NCBI GenBank assembly: GCA_031425655.1
Contig: JANPJS010000016.1
Coordinates: forward strand, 1 to 64,000
Direction: 5' to 3'
Origin: Abditibacteriaceae bacterium
Lineage (GTDB): Bacteria; Armatimonadota; Abditibacteriia; Abditibacteriales; Abditibacteriaceae
DNA: 64,000 nt
The notes beneath the pieces were generated by a model that ran no database searches, was not told the origin of the DNA, and saw only the letters and a list, made by a program, of their open reading frames with translations. Position numbers and translations under genes: made by a program. The number at the start of each line of letters is the position of its first letter. Positions within the stretch are counted from its first letter, which is position 1. Positions 5,136-27,431 of this stretch are shown piece by piece.

Positions 5136-5179
5136 GCGACCTGCCTCAGATGCGAAAGCGACGCAGAAGACTCTCTCCT

Positions 5180-8100: not shown

Positions 8101-8461
8101 CATGCGCGGCAATCTGCTTGACGAGCTTCGTAAGCCGTATGTGACAACAGCGATGGCGAAGGGCGTGCGGCCCTTCCGCCTGCTCATGAAATATCCGGTG
8201 CGGCTGGCGCTGAACCCGTTCATCTCCGGCATCGGCGGCATCTTCCCGCAACTGATTTCGGGCGGCGCCATCGTGGCGATTGTTCTCAGCCTGCCAATGG
8301 TCGGCCCGGTCATGCTGCAAGGCCTGATGACGCAGGATGTTTATCTCGCTGGCTCGATGCTGATGGTGCTCAGCCTGCTCGGCATCTTCGGCACGCTCGT
8401 TAGCGATTTGCTGCTGCTCTGGCTCGACCCGCGCATTCGCATGGAAGGAGGCTCGAAGTGA
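5180..8461 (+). CDS. ABC importer: family 5 substrate-binding protein fused to OppB/DppB-type permease (1093 aa)
   Basis: LPPVAERVGPEP, GKYGG, LRKGMKWSDGQPLTAND, NQLPYVDRI SBP motifs, then LPPGDF...YVTTAMAKGV EAA loop and WLDPRIR end; start taken at ATG 5180. Confidence 0.9.
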   Translation: MKKWTKFAVLLVVAFLCFGSVLYGWAVMLRPPLTAAPISYSQEKLAEIKQLRDVSFDPKNPPVVQRDVDYAQGKAAPWFPKGESPILAELVKDKKLPPVAERVGPEPVVLEGVDGIGKYGGTWLRIANAPGDVGIISWRLSGATLVRWSPMGYPIRPHIAKSWTASPDRREWTFHLRKGMKWSDGQPLTANDAVYWWQAEQLKIAATPVPWMTVAGKIGKLVKVDDYTIKFVFPKPNGVLLENLVRATPFSPRHYFEKYHPDLGDKKTKEAAMAARSLTSERALYTALSDFRNPECPRLWPWIYRTYKSSPPEGFVRNPYFWAVDPQGNQLPYVDRILFEVKSPKLIALTAASGDITMQARHLAYDNYTMLMENRARNRYQVYHWFPASRSAFTLWPNNNRRVLPNDAVSKNKATLLGNKTFRQALSLAINRQQIIKAIYAGYGEPAQIDPGRESEFHSENLMKSFTKFDPERAGQMFDGLGLDKRDIEGMRTFPDGSRMTWYIDFTDFTGEGPAQFVVDDWAKAGVRAIHRERSRPLWTTEKAALLHDFSVWTGESEFNPLVEPRSFVATYGESHFAPATGIWYQKGGLYGDPKALQGGIQPPKNSPMRRAQELLQQAQMAPTRAAQVKIFNQITDIAADNVWSISIATPPPQLCVVRDGFRGVPRNVMYGASYNTPANAGIETFYFEKPKDSPGAIAQIKKEMTTVTSETGTVSAGVAEAPSGGGLGRFVKLLIYGILALALLLAAVRHPYIGRRILIMVPTLLLISVVTFVIIQLPPGDFIETRITELRATGDEAAIEEVQRLSEMFHLDEPLWQQYSRWMGLKWFVTFDEADKGLLQGNMGRSMETQKSVNDIVGDRVMLTVLVSLGTILFTWAIAMPIGIYSAVRQYSWGDYVLSFLGFIGMCVPNFLLGIILMYWSGKYLGVNVTGLFSPEYAAQPEWTWGKVVNLLQHVWIPIIVIATAGTAGMIRVMRGNLLDELRKPYVTTAMAKGVRPFRLLMKYPVRLALNPFISGIGGIFPQLISGGAIVAIVLSLPMVGPVMLQGLMTQDVYLAGSMLMVLSLLGIFGTLVSDLLLLWLDPRIRMEGGSK

Positions 8462-13019: not shown

Positions 13020-13241
13020 GAAGCTGTCTGAAAATAGCTATCAATCCTGAGTTGAGCCGCTTTTCAATAGGACGCGGAGCTTCGCTTTTCTGCCCAGAGG
13101 GCGCCCGAAACGGCTTTGAAGGCGCGGTTTTCCAGAAAAAAATCCGCGAAAATCCGCGCACAACGTCCGCGTAGCGAAGCTCCGCGTCCTATTGAAAAAT
13201 ATTCGCTTTGAGGCTTTGACGAATTCTCAGACTGATTCTTA
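13017..13241. mobile_element. MITE-like element, family A copy 2
   Basis: Highly similar to 2039-2258; its ends coincide with the stop codons of both convergent flanking genes. Confidence 0.85.
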
Positions 13242-15713
13242 AGGACGCATCCGAAATTTTAATAATCGCAGCGCATTGGCGACGACGATCAAAGTGCTGC
13301 CCTCGTGGAAAATGACGGCGATGCCCAAGCGCGCGAAGCCGAACAGCGTCGAAGGCACCAAGATGGCGATCACGCCCAAAGAAATCCACAAATTCTGGCG
13401 GATAATCGCTTTGGCCTGACGGCTGAGCGCGACGGCAAAAGGCAGCTTCGCCATGTCGTCGCCCATCAATGCCACATCGGCGGTTTCCAACGCCACGTCG
13501 GTGCCGCCGGCACCCATCGCGATGCCGACCGTCGCCTGGGCCAGAGCCGGAGCATCGTTGACGCCATCGCCCACCATCGCCACTTGGCCGTGTTGCTTTA
13601 TGAGCGCGTTGATGGCCTCGACTTTGTTTTCCGGCAGCAAATCGGCGCGAAACTCCGTGACTCCGGCTTGCGGCGCGATATGACTGGCCACGCGCGCGTT
13701 GTCGCCGGTCAGCATGACTAAAGTGCCGACACCGATTTGCCGCAGCATTTCCAACGCCTTTTTCGATTCGGGGCGGATTTCGTCGGCGAAGGACAAAGCG
13801 CCCAAAAACTTATCGCCTCGGCTGACGATCATTGTCGGCTTGCCGCTATCGCCCAACAGGGTGACTTTTTCCAAAAGCGCGGCAGGAACCGGCATTTTCG
13901 CTTCTTCAAACATCCGCGCATTGCCGATTCGCACCAGTTGTCCGCCGACTTCGGCCTGCACGCCGCGTCCCTGTAAGTTTTGTAGTTCGCCGGAATCGGG
14001 CAGCGCCAATTTGTCGTTTTGCGCGCGACGCACGACGGCCTCGGCCAACGGATGCGAAGAGCGCGTTTCGACGGCTGCGGCGATTTGCAGCAACTGTGGT
14101 TCGCTGACGCCTTCCCACGGCACGATGTCGGCAACTTCGGGGCGCCCGCGCGTGAGCGTGCCGGTTTTGTCGAAAGCGATGGCGTTCAGGCTGCCCAAGT
14201 TTTCCAGATGCACGCCGCCTTTAATCAGCACGCCGTTGCGCGCCGCCTGGGCGATGCCCGCCAAAACCGCTGCCGGAGTTGCCAACGCCAAAGCGCACGG
14301 CGAAGCCGCAACAAGAGTGGACAGGGCGCGCAAGACCGCTTCTTTCCACGACAACCAACCGGCCAACGGCGGCACAATGGCGGCTAAAACCACGACGCCG
14401 ATGATGACCGGCACAAAAACGCGCTCGAAGTTTTCCGAAAAGGTTTGCGAAGGCGCTTTCTGGCTTTGCGCTTCCTCGACCATCTGCATAACGCGCGCGA
14501 TGGCGGTGTCTTGAGCCAATTTTGTGACTTCAACTTCCAGCGCGCCGTCGCCGTTGATCGTGCCCGCAAATACGCCGTCGCCGGGCGCTTTTTCGACGGG
14601 CACACTTTCGCCTGTAATCGGGCTTTGGTCAATGGCCGAATGGCCTTCGCGGATGGTGCCGTCAACGGCAACGCGGTCGCCGGGCCGCACGATGGCAACA
14701 TCGCCGACTTGGATTTGCTCAATCGGCACTTCGATTTCCTGAGCGCCGCGCCGCACGCGCGCCGTTTTCGGCGTCAGCTTGCCCAACGCCGCAATCGCGT
14801 TGCGCGCTTTTTCCATCGCCGAATGTTCGAGGGCGTGGCCGAGCGAAAAGAGGAACAATAGAAACGCGCCTTCGCCCCACTCGCCTAAAAATGCTGCGCC
14901 GACGGCACCGGCCAACATCAGAAAATCTACGTTGAAGCGGCCTGAAAGCATGGCCGGAACAGCGTGCCGCGTCAGGTTGAAACCGCCCGCCAAGTAAGCC
15001 CCAACATAGAACGCGATAGCCGCCGCTGCGGGCCAACCCAACCACTGTTCGCCCGCGAAGCCAATTGTTAGCAGCACACCCGACAAGACTGATAAGGCCA
15101 ACTCCAAGTTTTTCTGCAGCCAGCCGCCGCGTTCGGCGTGCGAATGGCCTTCGTGTTCGTCTTTGGGCTTGGCTGTGGCGGGGTCTGTGTGTTCGTGCCC
15201 GGCGTGGTCGTTCGGGCGCGGAGTGGAAAGCGCCATCGGCAGGCCGCGTTCGCCGGACGGCACGCGATAACCAAGTTTGTTGACGGCTTTGACGAGCGCA
15301 GCGCGATCAACTAAAGTCGAATCGTATTCGACTTTCATTTTCTGCGTCGGATAGTTCACGCCGACGTTCAGCACGCCGGGCTGCTTGCGAACGATGTGTT
15401 CAATCGAAGCAGCGCACGAAGCGCAGTCCATGCCCGCAATCAGCAGCGTTTCGTGACGAAACCGCTGCGTGATAGCCGCGCCCTCATCACGCGCCAAACG
15501 CTCCAATTTTTCCAGCGGCACTAAATTTGGGTCGTAGTGCAGGCACAAAAGCGTTTTGCCGTTTTGCTCGTCGAGATGCACCTGATGAATGCCGGTTTGC
15601 TCGATTAACCGCTCTTGCAGCCGCGCCACACAGCCGTCGGCAGCGCTGTCCACGCCCGGCAAAACGTGAGGAATTTCCAGTTGCAGCGTCGGTTCTTGCG
15701 TGTGATAGGACAT
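13239..15713 (-). CDS. Heavy-metal P1B-type ATPase (SPC/HEGST, P1B-4-like) with N-terminal HMA domains
   Basis: GMDCASC, TGES, SPCAL, DKTGTLT, SSHPLA, GDGVNDAP, HEGST. Confidence 0.95.
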   Translation of the reverse strand: MSYHTQEPTLQLEIPHVLPGVDSAADGCVARLQERLIEQTGIHQVHLDEQNGKTLLCLHYDPNLVPLEKLERLARDEGAAITQRFRHETLLIAGMDCASCAASIEHIVRKQPGVLNVGVNYPTQKMKVEYDSTLVDRAALVKAVNKLGYRVPSGERGLPMALSTPRPNDHAGHEHTDPATAKPKDEHEGHSHAERGGWLQKNLELALSVLSGVLLTIGFAGEQWLGWPAAAAIAFYVGAYLAGGFNLTRHAVPAMLSGRFNVDFLMLAGAVGAAFLGEWGEGAFLLFLFSLGHALEHSAMEKARNAIAALGKLTPKTARVRRGAQEIEVPIEQIQVGDVAIVRPGDRVAVDGTIREGHSAIDQSPITGESVPVEKAPGDGVFAGTINGDGALEVEVTKLAQDTAIARVMQMVEEAQSQKAPSQTFSENFERVFVPVIIGVVVLAAIVPPLAGWLSWKEAVLRALSTLVAASPCALALATPAAVLAGIAQAARNGVLIKGGVHLENLGSLNAIAFDKTGTLTRGRPEVADIVPWEGVSEPQLLQIAAAVETRSSHPLAEAVVRRAQNDKLALPDSGELQNLQGRGVQAEVGGQLVRIGNARMFEEAKMPVPAALLEKVTLLGDSGKPTMIVSRGDKFLGALSFADEIRPESKKALEMLRQIGVGTLVMLTGDNARVASHIAPQAGVTEFRADLLPENKVEAINALIKQHGQVAMVGDGVNDAPALAQATVGIAMGAGGTDVALETADVALMGDDMAKLPFAVALSRQAKAIIRQNLWISLGVIAILVPSTLFGFARLGIAVIFHEGSTLIVVANALRLLKFRMRP

Positions 15714-15783: not shown

Positions 15784-18700
15784 TTAAACCTCAACCGCCT
15801 GCCGCTCATCTTTCTCGAACCAGTTATACAGCGTGGGCAGCACGAAAAGCGTGAGTAGCGTGGACGTGATTAAGCCGCCGATGACGACGGTTGCCAGTGG
15901 CCGCTGCACTTCGGCACCGGCGCCGTGCCCCATCGCCATCGGCAAAAATCCGATGCTGGCCACTGCCGCCGTCATCAAAACCGGGCGCAGGCGCAGCAAA
16001 CAGCCGCGTTCGACGGCTTCGCGCAACGGCACGCCTTCGCTGCGAAGTTGGTTGATGAAACTTACCAAAACCAAACCGTTCAAAACCGCGACGCCAAAAA
16101 GCGCGATGAAGCCGACCGCCGCCGACATCGAAAAGGGAATGCCGCGAAACAAGAGCGCCAAAATGCCGCCGGTAATGGCGAAAGGAATGCCGGTAAAAAC
16201 CAAAGCCGCTTGTTTCATCGAGCCGAAAGTAGTGAAAAGCAGCAGAAAAATGACGGCGAAAGTGATCGGCACAATCAGCGCCAAACGAGCACGTCCGCTT
16301 TGCAGTTTTTCGTAGTTGCCGCCGTATTCCAAACGATAGCCGGGCGGCAGTTTGACTTCGCGCTCGATTTTGTCGCGCGCTTCTTCGACAAAGCTTCCCA
16401 AGTCGCGTCCGCGCACGTTGCTTTGAATCACGACGCGGCGGCTGCCGTTTTCGCGCGAGATTTGAACCGGGCCTTCGGTTGAATTAATCGAAGCCAACTG
16501 GCCAAGAGGAATCGCGCTTCCGTCCGGCGCGGGCACCGTGATGCGTCCAATCGCTTCGGGATCGCGGCGATACGATTCGGCCAAACGCAAAGCAATCGGA
16601 AACTTGGCGTCGCCCTGAATAATTTGCCCGACTTCCTGCCCGCCGATGGCGGCTTGAATCACTTGCTGCACATCGGCGATGTTGATGCCGTGTCGCGCGA
16701 TGGCCTCGCGGTGAATATCAATATCCAAAACCGGCAAACCTTCGGTCGCTTCGACGGCGACATCGGCGTTGCCCGGCACGCTTCGCAATACTTTGCCGAT
16801 TTCCGCGCCTTTTTGTGCCAATGTTTGCAAGTCGTCGCCGTAAAGTTTGATGCCCAATTCGCTGCGGATGCCGACGCCTTCGATCAGTTCGTTCATACGC
16901 ATTTGAATCGGCTGCGTCATCGAAATGCCCATGCCGGGCATCGCTTCGGATTTTTCGGCGATGGCCGTTACCAACTCGTCTTTGGAGTGCGCTTTTTTCC
17001 AATTCTCCATCGGCCTCAGCGTCATGATTAAATCGTGCTGCGAGGGCAGCATCGGGTCGGTGGCGACTTCGGGCCGGCCAATGCGCGTGAAAACTGCCGA
17101 TATTTCATCGGGAAATTCGCGCAGAAGCATTTTTTCGTAGGCCGTGGCACGCTCAACTGCGTATTCGATGCTCATCGAAGGCGGATAACCGATTTGAACG
17201 GCAACCGATCCTTCGTCCAGTTGCGGCAAAAATTCGCTGCCCAAACGCGGAAATAGCGCGGCGCAAAACAGAAAAAACCCAATGGCTCCGGCTAAAACCG
17301 GAAAGCGATGATTTAAAGCCCAGCGCAAGGCCGGCGCGTAGCCTTTGGCCGAATAAGTGATGATCGGCGATTCTTTTTCGCTTTTTACGCGCAAAAAATA
17401 AGCGCACAAAGCGGGAATCACGGTCATCGAAAGCAGCAACGCGCCGATTAAAGCCATGATGACGACCAAGCCCATCGGCTTGAACATTTTGCCTTCGATG
17501 CCAACCAGCGACAAAATCGGCAGATAAGCGGCGATGATAATCATCTCGCCGAACTGCGATGATTGCCGCACCTCGACTGCGCCCTCGTAAATTTCGGCAA
17601 GCCGCTCTTCTTCAGTCAAATCGCGCCCCAGATTGTGCCGCGCTTCGGCCAATCTTCGCACCGCGTTTTCGACGATGATAACCGCGCCGTCCACGATGAG
17701 GCCAAAGTCAACGGCGCCCAAACTCATCAGGTTGGCCGAAACCCCGAAATATCTCATGCCGATGATGGCGAAAAACATGGCCAACGGAATCGCCGCCGAC
17801 ACGATCAAGCCCGCGCGCAGTTGAAGCAGAAACAAAAACAGCACGCCGATGACGAGCAGGCCGCCTTCGGCCAAGTTTTTAATCGCCGTGCCCAAGGTGC
17901 GACTGATGAGTTCGCCTCTGTCCAATTCGCCGACGAGTTTGGTTCCCGCAGGCAGAGTTTTCTGGATTTTTTCGACGCGCTCTTTAACACGATCTACCAC
18001 GATGCGCCCGTTTTCTCCGAGCAGCAGCATAGTGATTCCCGCGACGGCTTCGCCCTTGCCGCCTTTGGTCACGGCGCCCTGACGCGGACGCCCGCCGGTT
18101 GTGACGACGGCCACATCGCGTATCATAATCGGCACGCCGCTTTGGGCTTTAAGCACGATGGTTTCGATGTCGCGCGCACTTTGCAAAGTGCCCACGCCGC
18201 GCACTAATTGCTGCTCGTCGCCCCTGTTGAGGTAACCTCCGCCCGCGTTCTGATTGTTTTGTTCCAGCGCTAAGGCCACGTCGCGCACGCTTAATCTACG
18301 CGCCGCGAGTTTTTGCGGGTCAACAATCACTTGATACTGCTTGGCCTGTCCGCCCCAGGTGTTGACTTCACTCAAACCCGGAACGGTTCGCAGTTGCGGC
18401 TTGACGGTGTAATCCATCAAGGTGCGCCGCTCTTCCAAGTTTTGCGGGCCATCCAAAAACAGATAATAAATCTCGCCCAGTCCCGTAGAAACCGGCCCCA
18501 TTTCGGGTTTTGCGCCGGTCGGCAACTCGTCCTGCGCGCTTTGCAAGCGCTCGAAGACCATTTGGCGCGCGAAATAAATATCTACGTTGTCTTCGAAAAT
18601 CACCGTAACCTGCGAAAGCCCGAACTGTGAAATCGAGCGTGTTTCCTGCAAACGCGGCATTCCCGCCAGAGCGACTTCGAGTGGAAACGTGACCTGCCGC

Positions 18701-18885
18701 TCGATTTCCGGCGGCGCCAATCCGGCCACGACCGTATTAATTTGCACCTGTTTGTTGGTGACATCGGGAATAGCGTCAATCGGCAGATTGAGGGCGTTGT
18801 AAGCGCCCGCGACCAATAAAATCAGCGCCATCAGCAAAACGAAAAACCGCTGTTTGATGGAAAAGCGGATCAATAGGTTAATCAT
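15784..18885 (-). CDS. czcA: CusA/CzcA family heavy-metal RND permease (1033 aa)
   Basis: LPIDAIPDVTNKQVQINT, ANLMSLGAVDFGLIVDGAVIIVEN, RLRPVLMTA, GAEVQRPLATVVIGG; start at ATG 18885. Confidence 0.92.
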   Translation of the reverse strand: MINLLIRFSIKQRFFVLLMALILLVAGAYNALNLPIDAIPDVTNKQVQINTVVAGLAPPEIERQVTFPLEVALAGMPRLQETRSISQFGLSQVTVIFEDNVDIYFARQMVFERLQSAQDELPTGAKPEMGPVSTGLGEIYYLFLDGPQNLEERRTLMDYTVKPQLRTVPGLSEVNTWGGQAKQYQVIVDPQKLAARRLSVRDVALALEQNNQNAGGGYLNRGDEQQLVRGVGTLQSARDIETIVLKAQSGVPIMIRDVAVVTTGGRPRQGAVTKGGKGEAVAGITMLLLGENGRIVVDRVKERVEKIQKTLPAGTKLVGELDRGELISRTLGTAIKNLAEGGLLVIGVLFLFLLQLRAGLIVSAAIPLAMFFAIIGMRYFGVSANLMSLGAVDFGLIVDGAVIIVENAVRRLAEARHNLGRDLTEEERLAEIYEGAVEVRQSSQFGEMIIIAAYLPILSLVGIEGKMFKPMGLVVIMALIGALLLSMTVIPALCAYFLRVKSEKESPIITYSAKGYAPALRWALNHRFPVLAGAIGFFLFCAALFPRLGSEFLPQLDEGSVAVQIGYPPSMSIEYAVERATAYEKMLLREFPDEISAVFTRIGRPEVATDPMLPSQHDLIMTLRPMENWKKAHSKDELVTAIAEKSEAMPGMGISMTQPIQMRMNELIEGVGIRSELGIKLYGDDLQTLAQKGAEIGKVLRSVPGNADVAVEATEGLPVLDIDIHREAIARHGINIADVQQVIQAAIGGQEVGQIIQGDAKFPIALRLAESYRRDPEAIGRITVPAPDGSAIPLGQLASINSTEGPVQISRENGSRRVVIQSNVRGRDLGSFVEEARDKIEREVKLPPGYRLEYGGNYEKLQSGRARLALIVPITFAVIFLLLFTTFGSMKQAALVFTGIPFAITGGILALLFRGIPFSMSAAVGFIALFGVAVLNGLVLVSFINQLRSEGVPLREAVERGCLLRLRPVLMTAAVASIGFLPMAMGHGAGAEVQRPLATVVIGGLITSTLLTLFVLPTLYNWFEKDERQAVEV

Positions 18886-19573
18886 GGGTGTTTTCCTCCG
18901 ATTCACACGCCGCGCCTGAAGCGTGGCAGCCACAACTTTGCCCCTGCCAGCTTTGCCAGCCTTCTTTAACGATGATGGGCGTCATAGCCAGAGCAGCCAC
19001 AGAATCAGCCCACCACCAGCCGAAAAAGGCATTTAAAATCAGGCCGGCCAGCACGATAATCGAGAGGTAAACGCAAATATCGGTTTGGCGTGAGTCGGCT
19101 TCCAAGGCGCGGCTTCCCAGAAGTTGTCCGGTGCGCCGTTTGGCTCTGGCTAAAAATGGCATCACGAATACAGAAAGCGTCGTCATGCCCACGCCCAACC
19201 AAGAAATTTCGGGTGCTTCCTTACGCAGCAACGAACTTCCAGCATCGAAGGCAATATAAGCCGCCAAAACTAAAAACGCCATGCCTACCAAGCGCAAGGC
19301 GATGGGTTCGCGGCTTTCTCCCACTTCGCCATCACGCAAGCGCCACAAAAGAACGGCGCCGGACAGCGATTCGATAAAAGAATCCACGCCAAAGCCGATC
19401 AGCGCCACACTGCCCGCCAAAACTCCGGCTGTGATGGAAACGCCGCCTTCGAGCACATTCCAAGCTAAAGTCAGGTATTCCAGCCGCCTTCCGCGTTGCA
19501 GCAGTTGAGCGCGAGAAACCATTTTTGTAGCGGGCGCAGGCACGCTTTCGGATGAAAGGTTTAAGTTGTTCAT
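18878..19573 (-). CDS. Cation diffusion facilitator-type cation transporter (short form)
   Basis: GSVALIGFGVDSFIE, LEADSRQT, WWWADSVAAL; CGCH tail. Confidence 0.85.
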   Translation of the reverse strand: MNNLNLSSESVPAPATKMVSRAQLLQRGRRLEYLTLAWNVLEGGVSITAGVLAGSVALIGFGVDSFIESLSGAVLLWRLRDGEVGESREPIALRLVGMAFLVLAAYIAFDAGSSLLRKEAPEISWLGVGMTTLSVFVMPFLARAKRRTGQLLGSRALEADSRQTDICVYLSIIVLAGLILNAFFGWWWADSVAALAMTPIIVKEGWQSWQGQSCGCHASGAACESEENTHD

Positions 19574-19575
19574 TG

Positions 19576-21966
19576 TTAATGCTCGTGGCCGAGTTCGGCT
19601 TTCATGCTTTGCGCCTTCACCATGAACGCGCCTTTAACCACGACTTTTTCGCCGTTTTTGAGGCCGTTTTTGATGACCGTTTGCCCGCCTTCGGTCGTGC
19701 CGACTTCCACTTCGCGCGCCACGTAAGTATTTGGTTCGTCGCCTTGCAAATAGACGACGGTTTTGTCTTCGGTTTTCAACACGGACGCGGCGGGCACAGT
19801 AATAACACTGCCGCCTGACGAAGTGACGATTTTGCCGCGCACAAACATTCCCAGCCGCAAATCGCCGGGATTGGGAATATCGGCGTGCGCTTCGACAGTG
19901 CGCGTTTTCTCGTCCAATGTGGTGTGAATCAGCTCGATAGAACCGTTGATAACGCGCCCCGGCAGGGCATCCACTGTAGCGCGCAACAGCGAACCAACGC
20001 GCACTTTGGCCATGTCGCGTTCGGGCAAAAACAGGTCAACGTGAACGCGGCTGAGATTGACGATGGTCATCAAATGCGCGTCGGCGTCCAATACTTCCCC
20101 CGGCGCGACTTCGCGGTCTTGCACCACGCCGGAAATGGGAGCTACAATCGGAATCGAAGCCGCGCGGCCCGGCGCGCTTTTCAGCAGCGATAAGGCCATC
20201 CGCGCCGCCTGCCTATCGCTTTGCGCCGATACGAGCAGCGAACGCGCGGCTTGCAATTGCGCGACGTTGTTGAGATTCTGGCCGTAGATGCCTTCTTCTC
20301 GTTGCAGCACGCCGGCGGCAACCGCCAAAGACTGCCGCGTCTGCTGCGCCGACGACTGCGCTGTTTGCAGATTGGCCAGCGCTAAGCTGACCTCGCGGCG
20401 ATTGGCGACTTTTTGCCCGAAAAGGCGCCGTTCGCGCTCCAAAGCCGCCGTCGTAACTTTTACCGATTGGCGCGCTTTGACCAGCGCCGTTTGCGCGGTT
20501 TCAAGAGCATTGCGCGCCGCACTCGTTTCACGACGATTGGCAAGCCCTTCCTTCCAAATCGCTTCCTCACGTTCGAGGGCCACTTTTGCCAGACGCACGC
20601 TCGAACGCGCCCGCGCGACTTCTGCGGTGCGCGTGCTGACATCCGATTGTGCCTCGGCAAGCGACGCCTGCGCCTGCTGCACTTCGGCGATACCGGCCAA
20701 GTCGCTGCTGGCCAAACGCTGCTGGCGAGCCACCTCTTCTTTGGCGGTCGCTTCGTCGGACTGCCCGCTTTCGAGACGCGCCGTTGCCGTATCGAAAGCC
20801 TGCTGCGCCGCTTCCAGATCGCGCTGCGACACCAAACCTTCGGCGCGCAGCGTTTTGGCGCGGGCTAAATTGGCGCGCGTTGTCGTCACTTCACTTTGCG
20901 CTGAGGCACGAGCCGACTGCGCCGTCACCAGAGCGCGCCGCGCTTCCTGCAAAGGGCGCGATTGATAAGCGCCCGCAGCCGCCAATTCGCGGCGGCGCTT
21001 CAGTTCAGCTTGCGCCGAAGTTGTCGCCGCCTGGGCGTTTTGCAGCGCGGCTTCGGCTGTGCGTTCGGCTTCTTCGGCCTGCGCCGACTGGTCGCGCGCG
21101 GCTTCCAAAGCCGGATTCGCAAATTTTCCTACGCGCGCCAAACTTTCGGCGTTTTGCAGCGCGGCCTGCGCTTGCCGCACGGCGGTTTCGCGCGTGCTGA
21201 CATCGGCAATTGCTGCGGCCTGATTTTCTTCGGCGGCTTCCAAAGCCGGGCTGGCGTAACCGCCCGCCCGCGCCACGCGCAGCACGTTTTCGTAAGCGAC
21301 CTGCGTCTGGCGCAAAGCGACTTGGGCAGAGCGCACTTGCCCTGCCGCTTCGACTTGCGCTTTGCGGGCGATTTCGAGCGGCGCGCGAGCAAAAACCCCG
21401 GCCCGCGCCTGCTTGGTTACAACATTGAGATTCGATTGGGCGTTTTGCAAGCGCGACCCGGCCTGCTGATAAGCCGATTGCGCTTCACCGATGGCGCGGC
21501 TTTCTACGATGGCTAAGGTTTGCCCTTTTCGCACGTTGGAGCCGACGGCAACGAAGAGTTTCGCCACGCGCCCCGGCACAAGCGAAGCCACACGCACCAC
21601 GCTGTCCGGGTCAGCCGCGATTTCTCCGTTGAAGGGGATGCCGCTGCTCTGCATTTCCATGCGAACCGGCGCCACTTGAATGCCGGCGATTTTGGCCGCG
21701 TCGCCCTCAAATTTGATTTCTTCAGCGCCGTGACCGCCTTCTTCCGCGTGACCTTCTGCGCTTTCCTCGTGGCCGTGTTCGTCCTTGTGCCCGGCTTCGG
21801 CAACAAGGGGTTTGGAGGTGTCGGGTGCATTTTGGCGCCCGACGAAAAAGGCCGCTACTGCTACGCCCGACACCAACATTACGATGTAAAACGGCGTGTT
21901 TTTAGTTGGTTTTGTTGAATTCGGTTTATCGCCCACATCAAGGGGCGTGATTGGCTGATTATTCAT
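19576..21966 (-). CDS. RND periplasmic adaptor (CzcB-like) with a greatly extended coiled coil, 796 aa
   Basis: N-terminal TM and His-rich tract, lipoyl halves (VASLVPGRV / IVAPISGVV), RLS tip RAKTLRAEGLVS, GLKNGEKVVVKGAF. Confidence 0.9.
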   Translation of the reverse strand: MNNQPITPLDVGDKPNSTKPTKNTPFYIVMLVSGVAVAAFFVGRQNAPDTSKPLVAEAGHKDEHGHEESAEGHAEEGGHGAEEIKFEGDAAKIAGIQVAPVRMEMQSSGIPFNGEIAADPDSVVRVASLVPGRVAKLFVAVGSNVRKGQTLAIVESRAIGEAQSAYQQAGSRLQNAQSNLNVVTKQARAGVFARAPLEIARKAQVEAAGQVRSAQVALRQTQVAYENVLRVARAGGYASPALEAAEENQAAAIADVSTRETAVRQAQAALQNAESLARVGKFANPALEAARDQSAQAEEAERTAEAALQNAQAATTSAQAELKRRRELAAAGAYQSRPLQEARRALVTAQSARASAQSEVTTTRANLARAKTLRAEGLVSQRDLEAAQQAFDTATARLESGQSDEATAKEEVARQQRLASSDLAGIAEVQQAQASLAEAQSDVSTRTAEVARARSSVRLAKVALEREEAIWKEGLANRRETSAARNALETAQTALVKARQSVKVTTAALERERRLFGQKVANRREVSLALANLQTAQSSAQQTRQSLAVAAGVLQREEGIYGQNLNNVAQLQAARSLLVSAQSDRQAARMALSLLKSAPGRAASIPIVAPISGVVQDREVAPGEVLDADAHLMTIVNLSRVHVDLFLPERDMAKVRVGSLLRATVDALPGRVINGSIELIHTTLDEKTRTVEAHADIPNPGDLRLGMFVRGKIVTSSGGSVITVPAASVLKTEDKTVVYLQGDEPNTYVAREVEVGTTEGGQTVIKNGLKNGEKVVVKGAFMVKAQSMKAELGHEH

Positions 21967-21978
21967 GTTTTTGGCTCC

Positions 21979-23385
21979 CTATCGCGCGGGCGGATTTTGC
22001 AAGGTGCCGGTTAGTTTGGCAGGCAGCGCGGCTCCGATGGCACTTTCCAGTGCGGCTTCGCCCGACCGCACGCCGACAAGGGCTTGCAAATACTCGGTTT
22101 GCACTTGGCGCAGCGTGCGTTGCGCTTCCAAAACTTCCAAATAAGTGCTGGCCCCGGCGTTGTAGCCGATCTGCGTTTTGCGGAGTAAATCCAGCGTGAG
22201 CGGCACAATTCCACTGCGGAAGCGTTCGACGGTCTGCCGCTGTTGTTCCAAGCGGAGCAGCGCTTGTTCGACTTGCGTGGAAACCTGCGAACGGAGAAAA
22301 GTAATTTGTGATTCTTGAGCGCGCACCTCGGCTTGTGCAGCGCGGCGTTCGGCTTTGAACGAGCCAAAATCGAACAGCGGAACGGTTACAACGGCGCGCA
22401 AAGCATAAGAACCTTGTCGCCCAAAAAACGATGAGCGGCGCCCTTGCACTTCGAGTTGAGGGCGCCCCTGACGGCGCAAAACGCCCACTTGGGCCTGTCG
22501 CGCTTCGAGAGTCGCTTGGGCGCTGAGTAAGTCGGGGCGCGTGCTTAAAGCGTTGGGCAAAATCTGGCCGCGTGCGCCCACCAAACTGCTGCCGACCTGC
22601 AAAGGCGGAACGGTGGAAGGTGGAACTGGGGAGGTGGAACTTGGAATTTGGGCGGCGAGGCCGTTGGTTCCAACTCCCAAACTCCACATTCCACCTCCTT
22701 CAAAAGCTACGCGCAACGGCGTTTCGGGCGCTTGTCCGACTAACTGGTTGAGTCCGGCGCGCCGCGCAAGCCGCTCGGTCTGCGCGTTGGTCAGCTCATT
22801 CTGCACGCGCAAGAGTTCCAGTTCGGCACGCTGCACCTGCACCGGCGGAACGTCGCCCAATTCGGCGCGGCGCGCGGCGGCGTTGCGAAATGCCTGCGCC
22901 ACTTCCACTTGCGCCACGCCCAACGACTCGGCTTCCTGAGCCGCGAATAAGGCGGCAGCGGCGTTTTTCACCTGCAAAATAAGCGTGCGTTCGGTGAGGG
23001 TGGTTTCGGCCTGTGCGCGGCGCAGTTCCGCCGCTGCGACTGCGGCTTGGGCGCGGCGCTGTCCGAAGACATCAATCGTCTGCGAGAGAATGACTTCTTC
23101 GTCGCGCGCCTCACGGCTGCCGCCAAAGCCCGGCACCAGTTGTAAAACCGGATTAGGCCGCGAACGCAAGCCATTCAAGCGTTCCCGCGCTGCGTCCTGA
23201 CTGGCCCGCGCGGTGGGCAACTGGGGATTATTCGCCAGAGCGCGGCGAATCAGATCATCGAGAGAGATTTCCGGCTCCACTGCCGATGGAATAGAAGCAA
23301 GCGGCGCGGCATCTTCAGCGCGCACAGCATCGCCGATGAAAAGCGGCACGAGGCCGCACAATAGAATTAACGATAAACGGGACAA
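21979..23385 (-). CDS. TolC-family outer-membrane factor (CzcC-like)
   Basis: Signal peptide, LIRRALANNPQL, VPLFDFG, YNAGASTYLEVLEAQR; TTG start with GGAGGT RBS. Confidence 0.88.
   Translation of the reverse strand: MSRLSLILLCGLVPLFIGDAVRAEDAAPLASIPSAVEPEISLDDLIRRALANNPQLPTARASQDAARERLNGLRSRPNPVLQLVPGFGGSREARDEEVILSQTIDVFGQRRAQAAVAAAELRRAQAETTLTERTLILQVKNAAAALFAAQEAESLGVAQVEVAQAFRNAAARRAELGDVPPVQVQRAELELLRVQNELTNAQTERLARRAGLNQLVGQAPETPLRVAFEGGGMWSLGVGTNGLAAQIPSSTSPVPPSTVPPLQVGSSLVGARGQILPNALSTRPDLLSAQATLEARQAQVGVLRRQGRPQLEVQGRRSSFFGRQGSYALRAVVTVPLFDFGSFKAERRAAQAEVRAQESQITFLRSQVSTQVEQALLRLEQQRQTVERFRSGIVPLTLDLLRKTQIGYNAGASTYLEVLEAQRTLRQVQTEYLQALVGVRSGEAALESAIGAALPAKLTGTLQNPPAR
22604..22700. 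repeat. Heptamer inverted-repeat array inserted in frame in the TolC gene
   Basis: (A/C)GGTGGA-like units followed by TTCCACC-like units. Confidence 0.7.
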
Positions 23386-23391
23386 GCGTAA

Positions 23392-23506
23392 CCTCCGATT
23401 AGAACCTGAAAAGCAGCAGCCGGCAGCCGCGACAGTGTGCGGGCCGGATGAGCGACAGCGGTCAGGGCGTGAGCCTTAACGCGCTTTGTCAGGCCGAAAT
23501 CGGAGG
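23392..23506 (-). promoter_or_regulatory. Putative anti-SD/SD pairing between the leader's Pro-Pro-Ile codons and the czcC RBS
   Basis: mRNA CCUCCGAUU (23506-23498) is the exact complement of AAUCGGAGG (23400-23392). Confidence 0.65.
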
Positions 23507-23932
23507 GGCACGACCGGAACAAGGAGAAGTGAGAAACTGGCTGCGAAGCCGGGCCAGAGGCGGCCCGTCGCTACCTAAAAAGGCAATCAGGGTCGCGGGC
23601 GCAGCATTCGCGTCCCGCAGGGAAGCGACAACCGGGACATCAATCAGCGGCGCATCGAGTTGAAAATTGACGACCTGCGCTCGTGTGGCAAGCTCCGATG
23701 TGGATTCGCAGCCGTCTTTCTCGTGGGAATCTGAATCAAGGGGAAACGGCACGCAAACACAATCGGCGCAAAGACAGGCCACGCCGGGCCGCGCGCTGCA
23801 CTGGGCGCCATTATGGGTAACAGTAAGCACCTGAGCGGTTAGACCTATCCGAGGAATGCCGGTGTGAGAAGCGCAGACATCAAGCGAATGGATCGCCAGA
23901 ACTACACACAACAAGGCCGCCACCCACGTCAT
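23489..23932 (-). CDS. Cys-rich exported leader protein with C-terminal RAPP motif (DUF2946/CruR/CutF/CzcI-like)
   Basis: Hydrophobic N-terminus, CLCADCVC cluster, ends GRAPPISA*; first gene of the efflux operon; alternative start at 23983. Confidence 0.7.
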   Translation of the reverse strand: MTWVAALLCVVLAIHSLDVCASHTGIPRIGLTAQVLTVTHNGAQCSARPGVACLCADCVCVPFPLDSDSHEKDGCESTSELATRAQVVNFQLDAPLIDVPVVASLRDANAAPATLIAFLGSDGPPLARLRSQFLTSPCSGRAPPISA

Positions 23933-24063
23933 AAAACGGGGACGGTTGAAGAAACCTTGTTTGAGAAAAGAACCGCTCAACATTATTAATGGCGCTCTGG
24001 CCGGCAAAATATGGCTTTACTGCCGAGTTTAACAGCAGCCGTCTTTTTCAATGGGAAGAACGG

Positions 24064-24275
24064 GAAGTCTCACCGGACAATCGCATTAGAAAATTGGGAG
24101 GCCAAAGCGGATGTCATTCCGAGCGGGCGCCCTTTGGGCAGGGTCGAGGAATCTTAATTTTCGGTGCAACGGCAAGATTCCTCGACTCCAAAACTCGCTG
24201 AGGCTCGTTTTTTCGCTCGGAATGACACTTTCTTTGGCTCTTCAAAATCCTAATACAATTGTCCTGGGAAGTCTC
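24064..24275. repeat. Composite palindromic element (outer imperfect IR around a GTCATTCCGAGC...GAGGAATCT REP doublet)
   Basis: Inner TGTCATTCCGAGC..GTCGAGGAATCT / AGATTCCTCGAC..GCTCGGAATGACA at 24112-24227; outer GGACAAT..GCCAAAG / CTTTGGC..ATTGTCC. Confidence 0.8.
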
Positions 24276-24451
24276 GAAAGTTGACGAGACGAAAAAGCAG
24301 CTTGAACACAGCCCTCATCCAATATCCAAGCGCAAACCCAACAAATAATGTTGATGTGCCTGTCCCAAGCACTCAAATCTCTTTCCGTTTTTCCGTTCTA
24401 CCCGTTGAAAAACCACGGAGGCATCGCAAGCTGCGTAAGGCGACTAACGAC

Positions 24452-24486
24452 GATGCCCTCAAGAAAAGGCTTTCTTGAGGGCATCA
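24452..24486. terminator. Hairpin downstream of tRNA-Ala, probable terminator
   Basis: GATGCCCTCAAGAAA-AGGC-TTTCTTGAGGGGCATC; no clear U-tract. Confidence 0.45.
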
Positions 24487-24541
24487 TTCGGTTTTAAACG
24501 TCTTGTTTCACTGGCTTTTGGCTGCTGTGCCGGTCTTCGGA

Positions 24542-24614
<73 letters not shown>

Positions 24615-24734
24615 GATTTTGTGCGTATTCTCTTTGTCCGCTCTTAAAGAGAGTTTGGGCACTCCATCCCATTCAAACGCCTCATCAATTTTAGCGAAAT
24701 TTAGAGAGAAGTCAAGCCGGCCTCGACGCGCCCC

Positions 24735-24941
24735 TTAGAATCTGTTCTGAGAATAGCCATTAATCGTGAGTTGAGCCGCTTTCAATGGCACGCGGATTTT
24801 ATACGCGGACACAGCTTTGAAGGCGCGGTTTTACCGAAAGAAATCAGCGAGAATCAGCGCACAACGTCCGCGTAGCGAAGCTCCGCGTCCCATTAAAAAG
24901 TCTTCGGTGTTAGTAGTCATGAATTCTCAGACGGCTTCTTA
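24735..24941. mobile_element. MITE-like element, family A copy 3
   Basis: Same arms as 2039-2258 but lacks the 17-bp insert in its core. Confidence 0.85.
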
Positions 24942-25064
24942 GGACCCACGGATGCTTGGCCGGCATTTGCACAGAAGCGAGAGGTATTATTTAGCCGGGC
25001 CGACCGCGTGCAAAATTCCTCAGCGCCGCACAGGGTCATTCAGTTCTATACACTTGGTGGAGCC

Positions 25065-25204
25065 TGACCTCCCGATTAAAATCGAGGTCTACCGCTACCA
25101 AGCCGATCTTCGTCGGCTGAACCAAGCAAGCAGTGAGAGTCCGCGCCGGGTGCCCTCCGGGCGAGGGACTTCGTAACCATAGACCCCGATTAAAATCGGG
25201 GCCG
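25065..25204. repeat. REP-like pair of CCCGATTAAAATCG(A/G)G hairpins
   Basis: GACCTCCCGATTAAAATCGAGGTCTAC and ATAGACCCCGATTAAAATCGGGGCC, resembling GTAG-type REPs. Confidence 0.65.
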
Positions 25205-25595
25205 TATCGCGCCGCACAAGAAGCGAATGACCCTGGCACCGCATTTGTTGATTGACTCGTCAATACAGTAAAATAAGCGTGCATGAAATAGCATTGCGGT
25301 TTCGCACTTTGGGGTTAGCTTCGATGATACGACAAACTAACTTCGGCCCCGTTCAATCATGGGCAGATTGGCCTGTCGGCGCGTTCGGGCTGAACGGAAC
25401 GCGAAGTTCGATTTCCAGTCTCTGCAATCCGCTGTTTCACTTCCCGACAAACTGTTCCTGCGCCGAAAGGCCGACCTTATAACGGAAATTTCTCAGGTTT
25501 TCGAGGTTCACCCGGCGCTTTTTCTGCGCTGTTCTCTTTAAGAGGATGGCACCGAAGTTGTATCCTATAGTTCCCGGTTGGTTAAGGGTGAGCAT

Positions 25596-27431
25596 ATGGC
25601 GACATCCCAGAAAAAATCCTTGCTGCAGGTCTTAGGTGAAAAGCGCAAAATCACCATCGAACAAGCGCGCGAAGCCGTCACGCGCCGCCAGACCAGCGGC
25701 GACTCGTTCGAGAACACCCTCGTCGAAATGGGCATCGAGGAAAACGATGTCTACGAGGCCAAAGCCGAATTGGACGGCGTGACTTTCCTTGATCTCGAAA
25801 CAGTCGAGGTTAGCTCCGAAGTGCGCGATCTTTTAGCGGAAGACCTTCAAGACCGTTACGAAGCCGTGCCGGTCTTTCAGGAAGGCAACAAGCTGACGGT
25901 CGCCATGACCAACCCCAAAGATGTCTTCGCCGTGGACGAAATCCGCATGAAGACCGGGCTGGACATTCGCGCAGTGCTAATTACGCCGTCGCAGCACGAA
26001 GCTCTGCGCGATGGCAGTTGGGGCGTCAGCACCAACGGTAACGGCCACGAAGCCGGCGAAGAAGCCGAAGAATCGGACGATGCGATCCAGGATATGCTGG
26101 ATATGCTCGATCCGACCAAAGCCCCCAAAGAAGCCGTAAAAAAGGGCTTTCTCGGTATGGGCGGCACCAAAGCGCAGGAAGGCGGCGGCTCCGGCGTTCC
26201 CGACACCACCGCAGAAGAAGAAGAAGACGGCGAAATCATGGGTGATTTCGCCGGCGCCGACGAAGCGCCGATTATTCGCATCGTGAACACGATTCTCATG
26301 TATGCGATCCGCGACGGCGCCAGCGACATCCACATCGAGCCGCAACGCAAAGGCGTGCGCATTCGCTATCGCATTGACGGCGTGCTGCACGAGCAAATGA
26401 AAGTGCCGCAATATGTGCTGAACCCGCTAATTTCGCGCATCAAGATCATGGGCGACATGAACATCGCCGAGCGCCGCGTGCCTCAGGACGGTCGTATTCA
26501 CATCAAGATGCAAGAAAAGGAATACGATATGCGTGTCAATACGTGTCCGACTGCCTTCGGCGAAAAAGTCGTGATGCGTATTCTCGACAAAAGCTCGGTG
26601 ATGATCGGTCTGGACAAATTGGGCCTTTATCCCGAAACGCAAACCCAGCTTCTCGACATCTGCAACCAGCCCAACGGCTGTTTTATGATTTGCGGCCCGA
26701 CCGGTTCGGGCAAAACCACGACGCTGTATTCAGTTCTCAACGTGGTCAACAGCGTTGAAAAAAACGTGATGACGGTCGAAGACCCGGTTGAATATCAGTT
26801 GCCCGGACTTTCTCAGGTTCACGTCAACCGCAAAGCCGGCCTGACCTTCGCCAACGCTTTGCGCGCCTTCCTTCGGCAAGACCCCGATGTCATCATGGTC
26901 GGAGAAATCCGCGACTTGGAAACGGCGGAAATCGCCGTGCAGGCGGCTCTGACCGGTCACCTTGTGCTGTCTACGATTCACACTAACGACGCGCCATCTA
27001 CGGCAACGCGCTTAGGCGACATGGGCGTGGAACCGTTTCTGATTTCGGCGTCCTTAGTCGGCGCCTTAGCGCAACGATTATCGCGCCGCATTTGCGCGAA
27101 CTGCAAAAGCGCTTATGTGCCGCAGCGCGAACTGCTGATGCGCTTCGGCTTCGATCCGCTTCAGCATCCCGAAGCCGAGTTTTTCAAAGGTATGGGCTGC
27201 GAGCGCTGCCGCCAAACCGGCTATAAAGGCCGTCTGGGCTGCTACGAATTAATGCGCATCAACGAAGAACTCGCCGAACTTATCGTGCGCCGCGCGCCTC
27301 TATCTGAACTAAAGGAAGCGGCCCGTTCCAACGGCATGGCGACTTTGCAGGAAGACGGCTTTCGCAAATGCCGCGACGGCTTCACCAACGTCGAAGAAGT
27401 TATGCGCGTCGTCTTCACCGGCGGACACTAA
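25596..27431 (+). CDS. pilB: Type IV pilus assembly ATPase (PilB/GspE family)
   Basis: GASDIHIEP, GPTGSGKTTT, TVEDPVE, LRQDPDVIMVGEIRD, two CxxC zinc motifs. Confidence 0.92.
   Translation: MATSQKKSLLQVLGEKRKITIEQAREAVTRRQTSGDSFENTLVEMGIEENDVYEAKAELDGVTFLDLETVEVSSEVRDLLAEDLQDRYEAVPVFQEGNKLTVAMTNPKDVFAVDEIRMKTGLDIRAVLITPSQHEALRDGSWGVSTNGNGHEAGEEAEESDDAIQDMLDMLDPTKAPKEAVKKGFLGMGGTKAQEGGGSGVPDTTAEEEEDGEIMGDFAGADEAPIIRIVNTILMYAIRDGASDIHIEPQRKGVRIRYRIDGVLHEQMKVPQYVLNPLISRIKIMGDMNIAERRVPQDGRIHIKMQEKEYDMRVNTCPTAFGEKVVMRILDKSSVMIGLDKLGLYPETQTQLLDICNQPNGCFMICGPTGSGKTTTLYSVLNVVNSVEKNVMTVEDPVEYQLPGLSQVHVNRKAGLTFANALRAFLRQDPDVIMVGEIRDLETAEIAVQAALTGHLVLSTIHTNDAPSTATRLGDMGVEPFLISASLVGALAQRLSRRICANCKSAYVPQRELLMRFGFDPLQHPEAEFFKGMGCERCRQTGYKGRLGCYELMRINEELAELIVRRAPLSELKEAARSNGMATLQEDGFRKCRDGFTNVEEVMRVVFTGGH

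Follow-up and report, generated by a model that had tools for sequence, protein, structure and literature searches.

How is an operon for metal efflux switched on when its contig carries none of the usual regulators? The question is raised by a 64,000-nucleotide (nt) stretch of DNA from an Abditibacteriaceae bacterium (phylum Armatimonadota; assembly GCA_031425655.1, contig JANPJS010000016.1, positions 1 to 64,000; hereafter, the window), in which a minus-strand operon that probably exports Zn, Cd or Co begins with a small leader gene in front of a czcC-like gene. An earlier note, made from the sequence alone, had read the leader as a RAPP ribosome-arrest peptide that controls czcC translation, and had seen no ArsR, MerR or two-component regulator near the operon. 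The latter holds for the operon's contig, where we counted none; the genome has 3 ArsR, 2 MerR and 7 OmpR-type matches elsewhere, and these regulators on other contigs could act in trans. We conclude that the leader probably serves, in cis and in response to metal, as a translational ON-switch for an efflux operon of the Zn/Cd/Co type, because its last codons hide the czcC ribosome-binding site (RBS) and a ribosome likely to stall on RAPP would free that site. The mechanism is well supported at the RNA level; we infer the ribosome stall, the metal input and the control of the whole operon.

The leader open reading frame (ORF) occupies 23489..23932 on the minus strand and encodes 147 amino acids. 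An alternative start, ATG 23983, gives 164 amino acids (database protein P0002) and adds a basic n-region; a clear Shine-Dalgarno (SD) sequence is absent at either candidate start (ATG 23932 or ATG 23983). Homologues with 55-77% identity exist. Translation bore out an exported-looking protein that carries the cluster CLCADCVC and ends GRAPPISA*. Its hydrophobic, export-signal-like segment, residues 3-16 (23885..23926, minus strand; Kyte-Doolittle 15-residue maximum 2.63), is modelled by AlphaFold as a helix with a predicted local distance difference test score (pLDDT) of about 90, within a model of the whole leader that has low confidence (pLDDT 58.9). The cluster CLCADCVC, residues 53-60 (23753..23776, minus strand), offers candidate metal ligands. 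Cys75 (23708..23710, minus strand), the last sensor Cys, is a Cys in 20 of the 21 rows of our leader alignment; it lies 65 residues before the RAPP motif and 45 before a second arrest- or pause-like motif, S-D-G-P-P (site 1; 23558..23572, minus strand). The RAPP itself (site 2, R141-A-P-P144; 23501..23512, minus strand) is three residues from the stop, a C-terminal position like that of the RAPP in DUF2946 proteins such as CruR, and its Pro codons, CCT CCG, begin the anti-SD.

The codons CCT CCG ATT (23506-23498) are, as first noticed in the letters, the exact 9-nt complement of AATCGGAGG (23400-23392), which contains the czcC SD: GGAGG (23396-23392) stands 6 nt ahead of the TTG at 23385 that starts a TolC-type gene matching PF02321. 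The 5' arm of the closing helix is CCUCCGAUU plus GGCCUGA, that is, the last five codons and the stop (23486..23506, minus strand), and the 3' arm is UCAGGUU followed by AAUCGGAGG, including the SD (23392..23412, minus strand); the same arms were also listed as a 21-nt inverted repeat. A stem longer than the nine pairs had been proposed, with CGUG/UACG as the extension. The helix is indeed longer, but the outer CGUG/UACG is only partly paired and the main extension runs inward, where GGCCUGA pairs with UCAGGUU over the stop codon. The folding energy of the 161-nt segment is -60.3 kcal/mol, where shuffled versions average -48 (z -3.46; 1 of 200 shuffles equally good), so that the fold exceeds what chance would give.

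Relatives of the locus carry the same arrangement. A search with the N-terminal portion of CzcC found 29 matching places, spread over 19 of the 27 Abditibacteriaceae family genomes; two places lack the 5' end of czcC, and 24 of the 27 evaluable loci have an intact leader ending in R[AGS]PP. Judged by sequence, a RAPP-type motif near the C-terminus of a small, putatively exported upstream ORF (uORF) is thus conserved in 24 of 27 family loci, in leaders that are mostly 19-34% identical to that of the window. A motif-based metagenome scan gave 14 matches, 12 of them leaders and 2 chance hits, with an outer-membrane efflux protein (OEP) gene behind 11 of the 12; among distant OEP matches in other families, one of nine (L030) had such a leader.

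For the 24 intact loci and one with an altered RAPP (L066), 25 in all, we exchanged helix arms among loci, taking the 24 nt from the first Pro codon as the 5' arm and the 26 nt before the start as the 3' arm. Cognate arms pair with a mean of -18.46 kcal/mol and permuted arms with -11.96 (standard deviation 0.7), and none of 20,000 permutations reaches the observed value; covariation of the anti-SD/SD pair, named beforehand as the test on which the proposal could fall, was therefore found. Random synonymous recoding weakens the duplex in 21 of the 25 loci (fraction <= 0.1; 0.003 in the window), the 4 loci that fail being ones whose leaders end GRAPPA[FC]. In 15 of the 25 loci the first Pro is encoded by the rare CCU (10.7% genome-wide; 34 of the 229 other leader Pro codons). 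The arm-swap, recoding and codon-choice controls all point to selection on the pairing.

Pair types were counted in 34 loci (25 from the family and 9 from metagenomes, with L104, L105, two duplicates and the two chance hits excluded) on per-locus duplex predictions, which are biased towards pairing and were used because a MAFFT alignment of the stem lost the register of the arms. CCUCC pairs directly with the SD in 21 of the 34. At the wobble position of the second Pro codon these 21 have G-C in 2, C-G in 6, U-A in 6, G-U in 1 and no pair in 6; at the base after the Pro-Pro codons they have A-U in 2, U-A in 4, G-C in 8, G-U in 5 and no pair in 2. Other subgroups hide the SD through codons just after Pro-Pro or through the stop codon, within the footprint of a stalled ribosome, and the pairing runs 10-15 nt past the SD with both arms changing in step. 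Chance, by which CCN-CCN would pair with any GGAGG and the leader would be an ordinary secreted metal-binding protein, can appeal to the fact that any CCU-CCN codon pair complements an SD. We regard it as very improbable, given the reach of the pairing past the SD, the covariation of both arms and the outcome of the swap and recoding controls, and given that RAPP is avoided in ordinary genes: it occurs once in the 1.14 million residues of this genome's long ORFs, and AAPP 81 times.

Three family loci depart from the pattern. In L066 (G016:C8), RAPP has become PAPP, the anti-SD helix is perfect and an upstream RAGPP is retained. The leader of L051 (G017:C30, about 3476-4048) has lost RAPP, anti-SD and stop, so that its ORF crosses the SD and ends four codons into czcC; it retains RAGPP 45 residues after its last Cys and could be a translationally coupled form with site 1 only, or an assembly error. 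L052 (G005:C53) has no leader and carries a histidine kinase gene directly upstream of czcC, with two-component control in place of the leader, as if the two were alternatives.

To model a stalled ribosome, we held positions -12 to +15 around the first Pro codon of RAPP unpaired and compared minimum free energy (MFE) values; published toeprints (PMC10987492, PMC12992588) show the P site occupied by the first Pro of RAPP. With this footprint in place, opening the RBS becomes cheaper by more than 3 kcal/mol at 15 of the 25 loci; a footprint 5-19 codons upstream has this effect at only 1-2 of 25. A second run gave a gain above 3 kcal/mol with the ribosome on RAPP in 15 of 24 family loci and in 10 of 15 loci from other families of the phylum (those with a tandem RGPP..R[AG]PP, see below), whereas a ribosome on site 1 gave such a gain at just 1 of the 24 and 1 of the 15. 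The expectation that a ribosome on RAPP opens the czcC RBS is therefore borne out in the model, where upstream placements fail.

Several observations weigh against the switch. The gain in the window varies with the stretch that is folded (18.1 to 4.5 or 12.3 to 7.2 kcal/mol), the opening cost differing by the amount of upstream RNA included, and the unpaired probability of the SD rises only from 0.001 to 0.196 with the ribosome on RAPP. A terminating ribosome melts the same helix (SD unpaired, 0.121), so only dwell time separates the states. At 9 of 24 family loci, which include the six GRAPPA[FC] ones, the gain does not exceed 3 kcal/mol. The covarying loci are kin, and their pair changes are not independent events. 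The metal-binding segment is not conserved in sequence: CxCxxCxC is kept in the closest homologues, and distant ones carry His-rich or other Cys clusters instead. Finally, the leader of L074 has no Cys at the usual distance.

In the GRAPPA[FC] group (L004, L006, L008, L038, L039 and L040), the RAPP codons lie in a local hairpin and the SD in a separate one, and the arm that is set free complements a stretch adjoining the anti-SD. A hairpin relay in this group is possible by pairing and is unsupported, with MFE gains below 3 kcal/mol. Outside the phylum, the analysis covered four loci on plasmids and 89 rows from a published table; the C. metallidurans locus L116, which is without annotation, was left out. 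Two of the Proteobacterial plasmid loci (L115:2045-2413 and L117:1184-1543) have His-rich ORFs before czcC that end FRPPIV and LRPPASLLV, whose last codons pair with the czcC SD; the footprint lowers the opening cost there by about 3 and 7 kcal/mol.

The class to which this leader belongs is already known, and the earlier note overstated its novelty. Ozturk 2023 (PMC9973294) defined CutF-like leaders, with OEP genes (CusC/CzcC/SilC) as the most frequent neighbours, and Fujiwara 2025 (PMC12992588) counted 530 RAPP uORFs before TolC genes, a 5.5-fold enrichment; in these two published surveys, CusC/CzcC/TolC genes are thus the commonest or a strongly enriched context. We propose, by analogy, that the leader works like CutF and resembles CruR. 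With the CutF-cutO pair of Rhodobacter capsulatus it shares a Cys leader, here putatively exported, a C-terminal Pro motif, a stem that hides the SD and, as predicted for the window, a stall that turns metal defence on: stalling of CutF opens the cutO SD (PMC9973294; 10.1101/2025.02.05.636593) and is induced by Cu (Ozturk 2025, 10.1101/2025.02.05.636593). It differs in that in CutF the stall occurs at an EF-P-sensitive EGPPP that follows CxxxC by 45 residues, and the stem is described as intergenic, whereas the window leader has a terminal RAPP with the anti-SD within the RAPP codons, a GPP motif at the 45-residue distance, 20 residues before RAPP, and as its target a divalent-metal RND/CDF/P1B operon. 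The leader also holds CxCxxCxC with further Cys and His, candidate ligands that by sequence resemble the Cys/His motif of CutF-like proteins, the strict CxxxC being absent; against the length rule of that class (<150 amino acids; PMC9973294) its two possible starts give 147 and 164. The names Abditibacter and Armatimon are absent from three text supplements of that survey.

CruR (Bp2923, DUF2946) of Bordetella pertussis likewise has RAPP three residues from its end, where toeprinting shows arrest (PMC12992588), together with Cys ligands and a place as first gene of a metal operon; a long intergenic region, 103 nt between leader and czcC in the window, is common to both. In CruR, however, metal relieves the stall, an importer is turned off through Rho and CXXC lies 45 residues before RAPP (PMC9426467), whereas the target here is efflux, and RAPP lies 65 residues from the last Cys and 82 from the CxxC. 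PF11162 (DUF2946) matches neither the leader nor any of the 21 aligned leaders (E<=1) nor, in a genome-wide scan, the locus, the single sub-threshold match of that scan lying elsewhere in the genome; nor does a CXXC stand 45 +/- 2 residues before RAPP. By these two sequence tests, the leader is outside Pfam DUF2946. Pfam and NCBIfam scans assigned none of the leaders to a named family, and ESM Atlas matches are unnamed clusters of 150 amino acids and, as a lead only, a DUF6769 set at 33% of members.

The likeness to CruR also raises termination by Rho in the 103-nt intergenic region as the main control, with the helix secondary. CruR works this way (PMC9426467), and the intergenic regions are structured and pyrimidine-rich. 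We judge it improbable here: the covariation is centred on the SD, intergenic regions are merely 28-31 nt in three loci, and terminator-like hits within the intergenic region have weak tails.

Export monitors offer a further comparison. SecM, ApdA/ApdP and members of the RQH family share with the leader a signal, a spacer and a terminal RAPP-like arrest (PMC10987492, PMC7897499), and the stall of SecM and of one RQH member frees an SD from its stem, as modelled for the window; for ApcA, ApdA and ApdP, no SD-hiding hairpin was predicted. These monitors precede sec/yidC genes and sense export, unlike the efflux operon of the window. The leader could nonetheless be a SecM-like monitor of secretion or the envelope, its stall reporting Sec or disulfide capacity while metal control is transcriptional, through regulators elsewhere. 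The signal-like segment with terminal RAPP follows the design of SecM/ApdP (PMC10987492), there is little conservation in the Cys/His region, and ArsR, MerR and OmpR-type regulators are encoded on other contigs. Yet such a monitor would be induced when export is poor, a bad moment to make an exported pump; the leaders are rich in Cys and His and keep the Cys at a fixed distance from the stall; and the locus without a leader, L052, has its histidine kinase directly before czcC. We therefore hold this explanation unlikely.

CzcI of Cupriavidus/Ralstonia czc operons, again a small exported His/Cys protein, is encoded immediately ahead of czcC; its end, RAPDRPQW, has no RAPP, and the operons that carry it have two-component regulators. 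At two czcI loci (L114:1705-2061 and L118:1744-2076), a word like CGTCTCGCC stands at the stop and again downstream, flanking one complementary copy. A two-hairpin relay at czcI is unsupported, as the footprint gave no clear RBS opening in either of the two loci.

Returning to the metal-responsive ON-switch, we propose that it would run as follows. Its first step has an observed basis in the helix, the covariation of the helix and the divalent-metal type of the pumps. Folding then predicts an RBS that is shut when the RNA is free or the ribosome is upstream, and open with a ribosome on RAPP. By analogy with ApdA/ApdP and CruR, arrest would set in with the first Pro in the P site and would be released by a pull on the exported chain. 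The Cys cluster, by then already outside the inner membrane, would bind metal and so lengthen the occupancy of RAPP; czcB, the CDF gene and czcA would follow through translational coupling and polarity. The route that we rank first, and that takes rather more than half of our confidence in the switch, is the CutF one, in which metal may block a force-generating folding or disulfide step and the upstream GPP would be an accessory pause. How metal prolongs the stall is stated to be unknown in PMC9973294.

Site 1 and the Cys spacing, which the earlier note missed while its RAPP/anti-SD design is supported, bear on this point. Under a broad pattern, 24 of the 25 family leaders have a further arrest-like motif, which precedes RAPP by 10-21 residues, and one leader has no site 1; the motif is R-[DAE]-G-P or R-[AG]-P-P in most relatives. 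The types are RDGP in 6 leaders, RAGP in 4, RGPP in 3, REGP in 1, RAPP in 1 and R[GS]PD in 6, with SDGPP, GDGPP and LAGPP in 1 each; a strict Arg motif is present in 15 of 25, and the Arg-less sites, that of the window included, have two prolines. The five strict motifs together occur 26 times in the 1.14 million residues of the genome's long ORFs. In PMC12992588, arrest was most robust with RGPP. In a second subfamily, RGPP precedes a terminal R[AG]PP by 14-15 residues in 34 of 34 protein hits, a count that includes two query proteins and is inflated because the search profile held both motifs. In other families of the phylum 20 loci were compared, not counting three query loci and two matches that contain internal stops. 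Of these 20, 18 have a leader, and 15 of the 18 have tandem RGPP..R[AG]PP, mostly before OEP-like genes; the tandem design is the rule for czcC leaders in the Armatimonadota genomes examined.

None of the 25 family leaders has a Cys 30-60 residues before the RAPP proline, and the last upstream Cys is at 62-73 in 24 of them. From the last Cys to site 1 the distance is 45 in the window, 44-49 in 16 of 25 leaders, 51-52 in 6, 38 in 1 and 108 in 1, and it is 48-49 in 28 of the 34 second-subfamily hits. In DUF2946 proteins 45 residues separate CXXC from RAPP, and CruR no longer responds to copper once five more are inserted (PMC9426467); CutF has a 45-residue spacing as well (PMC9973294). In the window leader, this spacing lands on the upstream SDGP and not on RAPP.

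A two-site relay, a sub-case of the ON-switch that would act as a sign inverter, could use this geometry. Without metal, the ribosome would park at site 1 (xDGP/RGPP), too far off to touch the helix, and czcC would be off; metal would fold the Cys cluster at the CruR distance and pull the chain out of site 1; the ribosome would then run 15-20 codons to RAPP and stall on the anti-SD, turning czcC on. The leaders would thus join a CruR-type release sensor, made up of the Cys cluster, a stretch of about 45-49 residues and the first arrest motif, to a module of 15-20 residues in which the anti-SD itself encodes a second arrest motif. The relay is favoured by the frequency of site 1 in the family and of the tandem motif in the second subfamily and the phylum, by synonymous codon variation at most positions of site 1, by the CruR-like spacing and the want of Cys 30-60 residues before RAPP, by the shut RBS with a modelled ribosome at site 1, and by the presence of RDGP, LAGP and TGPP on the RAPP-like query list of PMC10987492. 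On the other side, Arg is absent from site 1 of the window and its closest homologues (S/G-D/N-G-P-P), and leaders without a clear site 1 keep a Cys-RAPP distance of 62-67 (L033 and L140; L030 and C28 by eye). A Cys-RAPP distance of 60-70 is also that at which periplasmic folding pulls, about 70 residues from the catalytic centre of the ribosome (10.1101/2021.02.06.430026). Besides the inflated 34 of 34, the published uORF table (PMC12992588) tells against it: in two blocks out of its 288 TolC rows and one block of TonB-receptor rows, inspected by eye, a clear second motif appears in only 7 of 60 and 3 of 29 rows. The predicted link of tandem motifs to efflux rather than import genes failed in this sample, and tandem motifs elsewhere are therefore a minority, their efflux specificity unsupported. 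On balance, we hold the relay as a tentative and less likely form of the switch.

More doubtful still is a reading in which RAPP is the sole regulatory stall and site 1 is a traffic brake that would keep the following ribosome away and so shield the stalled one from collision-triggered rescue, or a membrane-targeting pause. In its favour, site 1 always precedes site 2 by 10-21 codons, room for one ribosome footprint or more, some leaders have no site 1, and tandem motifs occur before TonB receptors too. It leaves unexplained why the last Cys should precede site 1 by 44-52 residues in three subgroups whose offsets differ.

On sequence grounds, what is new here is the tandem motif at CruR-length Cys spacing and the covarying anti-SD written in the arrest codons. 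The uORFs of Fujiwara 2025 before TolC genes share gene context and motif class (RAPP/RGPP) with the window leader; the part of that survey available lists genes and describes neither an anti-SD in arrest codons nor tandem motifs. We found no literature that describes either feature for such leaders, although figures and subscription papers may. In a related 2024 survey, the queries kept only the most C-terminal di-proline motif, and surveys that keep only the last Pro-Pro motif can miss half of a switch. The characterised leaders of the class in the literature found are copper-responsive only (CruR, CutF); by its sequence, this locus family is a putative divalent-metal case, with an RNA switch supported by covariation. 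Were the relay true, metal release of the first stall would create the second and turn efflux on, inverting the sign of a force-release sensor, and would give a concrete answer to how metal binding can seem to induce stalling. The tandem design makes this sign problem testable, and the family supplies natural variants: the change from RAPP to PAPP, a leader that has lost site 2, single-motif leaders and a sensor kinase that replaces the leader.

The same genome has three further hydrophobic small ORFs that end in RAPP, at least two of which head metal-efflux or copper-linked genes. One (C149:14117-14635, plus strand; RDGP..RAPP) follows a copper-ATPase-like gene and an ORF that resembles CsoR, labels given by eye, and its RAPP codons pair with the next SD. 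Another (C256:11619-12263, minus strand) is His-rich and precedes OEP/RND genes; the third (C28:8316-8849, plus strand) has one motif.

The genes behind the window leader, all on the minus strand, make up by sequence a czcCBA-type divalent-metal efflux operon, with OEP, adaptor, CzcA-type RND pump and divalent-type ATPase. The gene that would be gated directly (21979..23385) encodes the CzcC-like OEP/TolC protein, and 13 nt after it comes a CzcB-like periplasmic adaptor (19576..21966). At 796 amino acids this adaptor is unusually long: a repeated, coiled-coil-like insert separates its lipoyl-like halves, and its N-terminus has a patch rich in His and Glu. A CDF-family transporter domain follows (18878..19573; PF01545), whose stop is overlapped by the start of a CzcA-like heavy-metal RND pump (15784..18885; TIGR00914 over cut-off). 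The first four genes are closely packed, and 70 nt downstream of the RND gene lies a divalent-metal-type P1B ATPase (13239..15713; TIGR01512 over cut-off). Besides its SPC/HEGS core, which we take to be that of a P1B-4 ATPase, it has an HMA domain (CASC) at the N-terminus and a linker rich in His. Zn/Cd/Co is the probable cargo, because the pump is nearer to ZneA, its best solved relative (745 bits), than to CusA (658 bits), and the ATPase is nearer to cadmium and zinc structures (7qbz, 'cadmium translocating', then ZntA) than to those for copper.

In the surroundings of the leader, no promoter passed a sigma-70 scan, and an Rfam scan of 23200-25600 returned no riboswitch, only a tRNA and one sub-threshold match. 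The tRNA-Ala(GGC) gene (24542-24614, minus strand) has its terminator hairpin at 24452-24485. Between it and the leader, a nested palindrome with arms around GTCATTCCGAGCG spans 24070-24269 and resembles a repetitive extragenic palindromic (REP) element. Farther off in the window, 5150-8461 encodes an ABC substrate-binding domain fused to its own permease (1103 amino acids).

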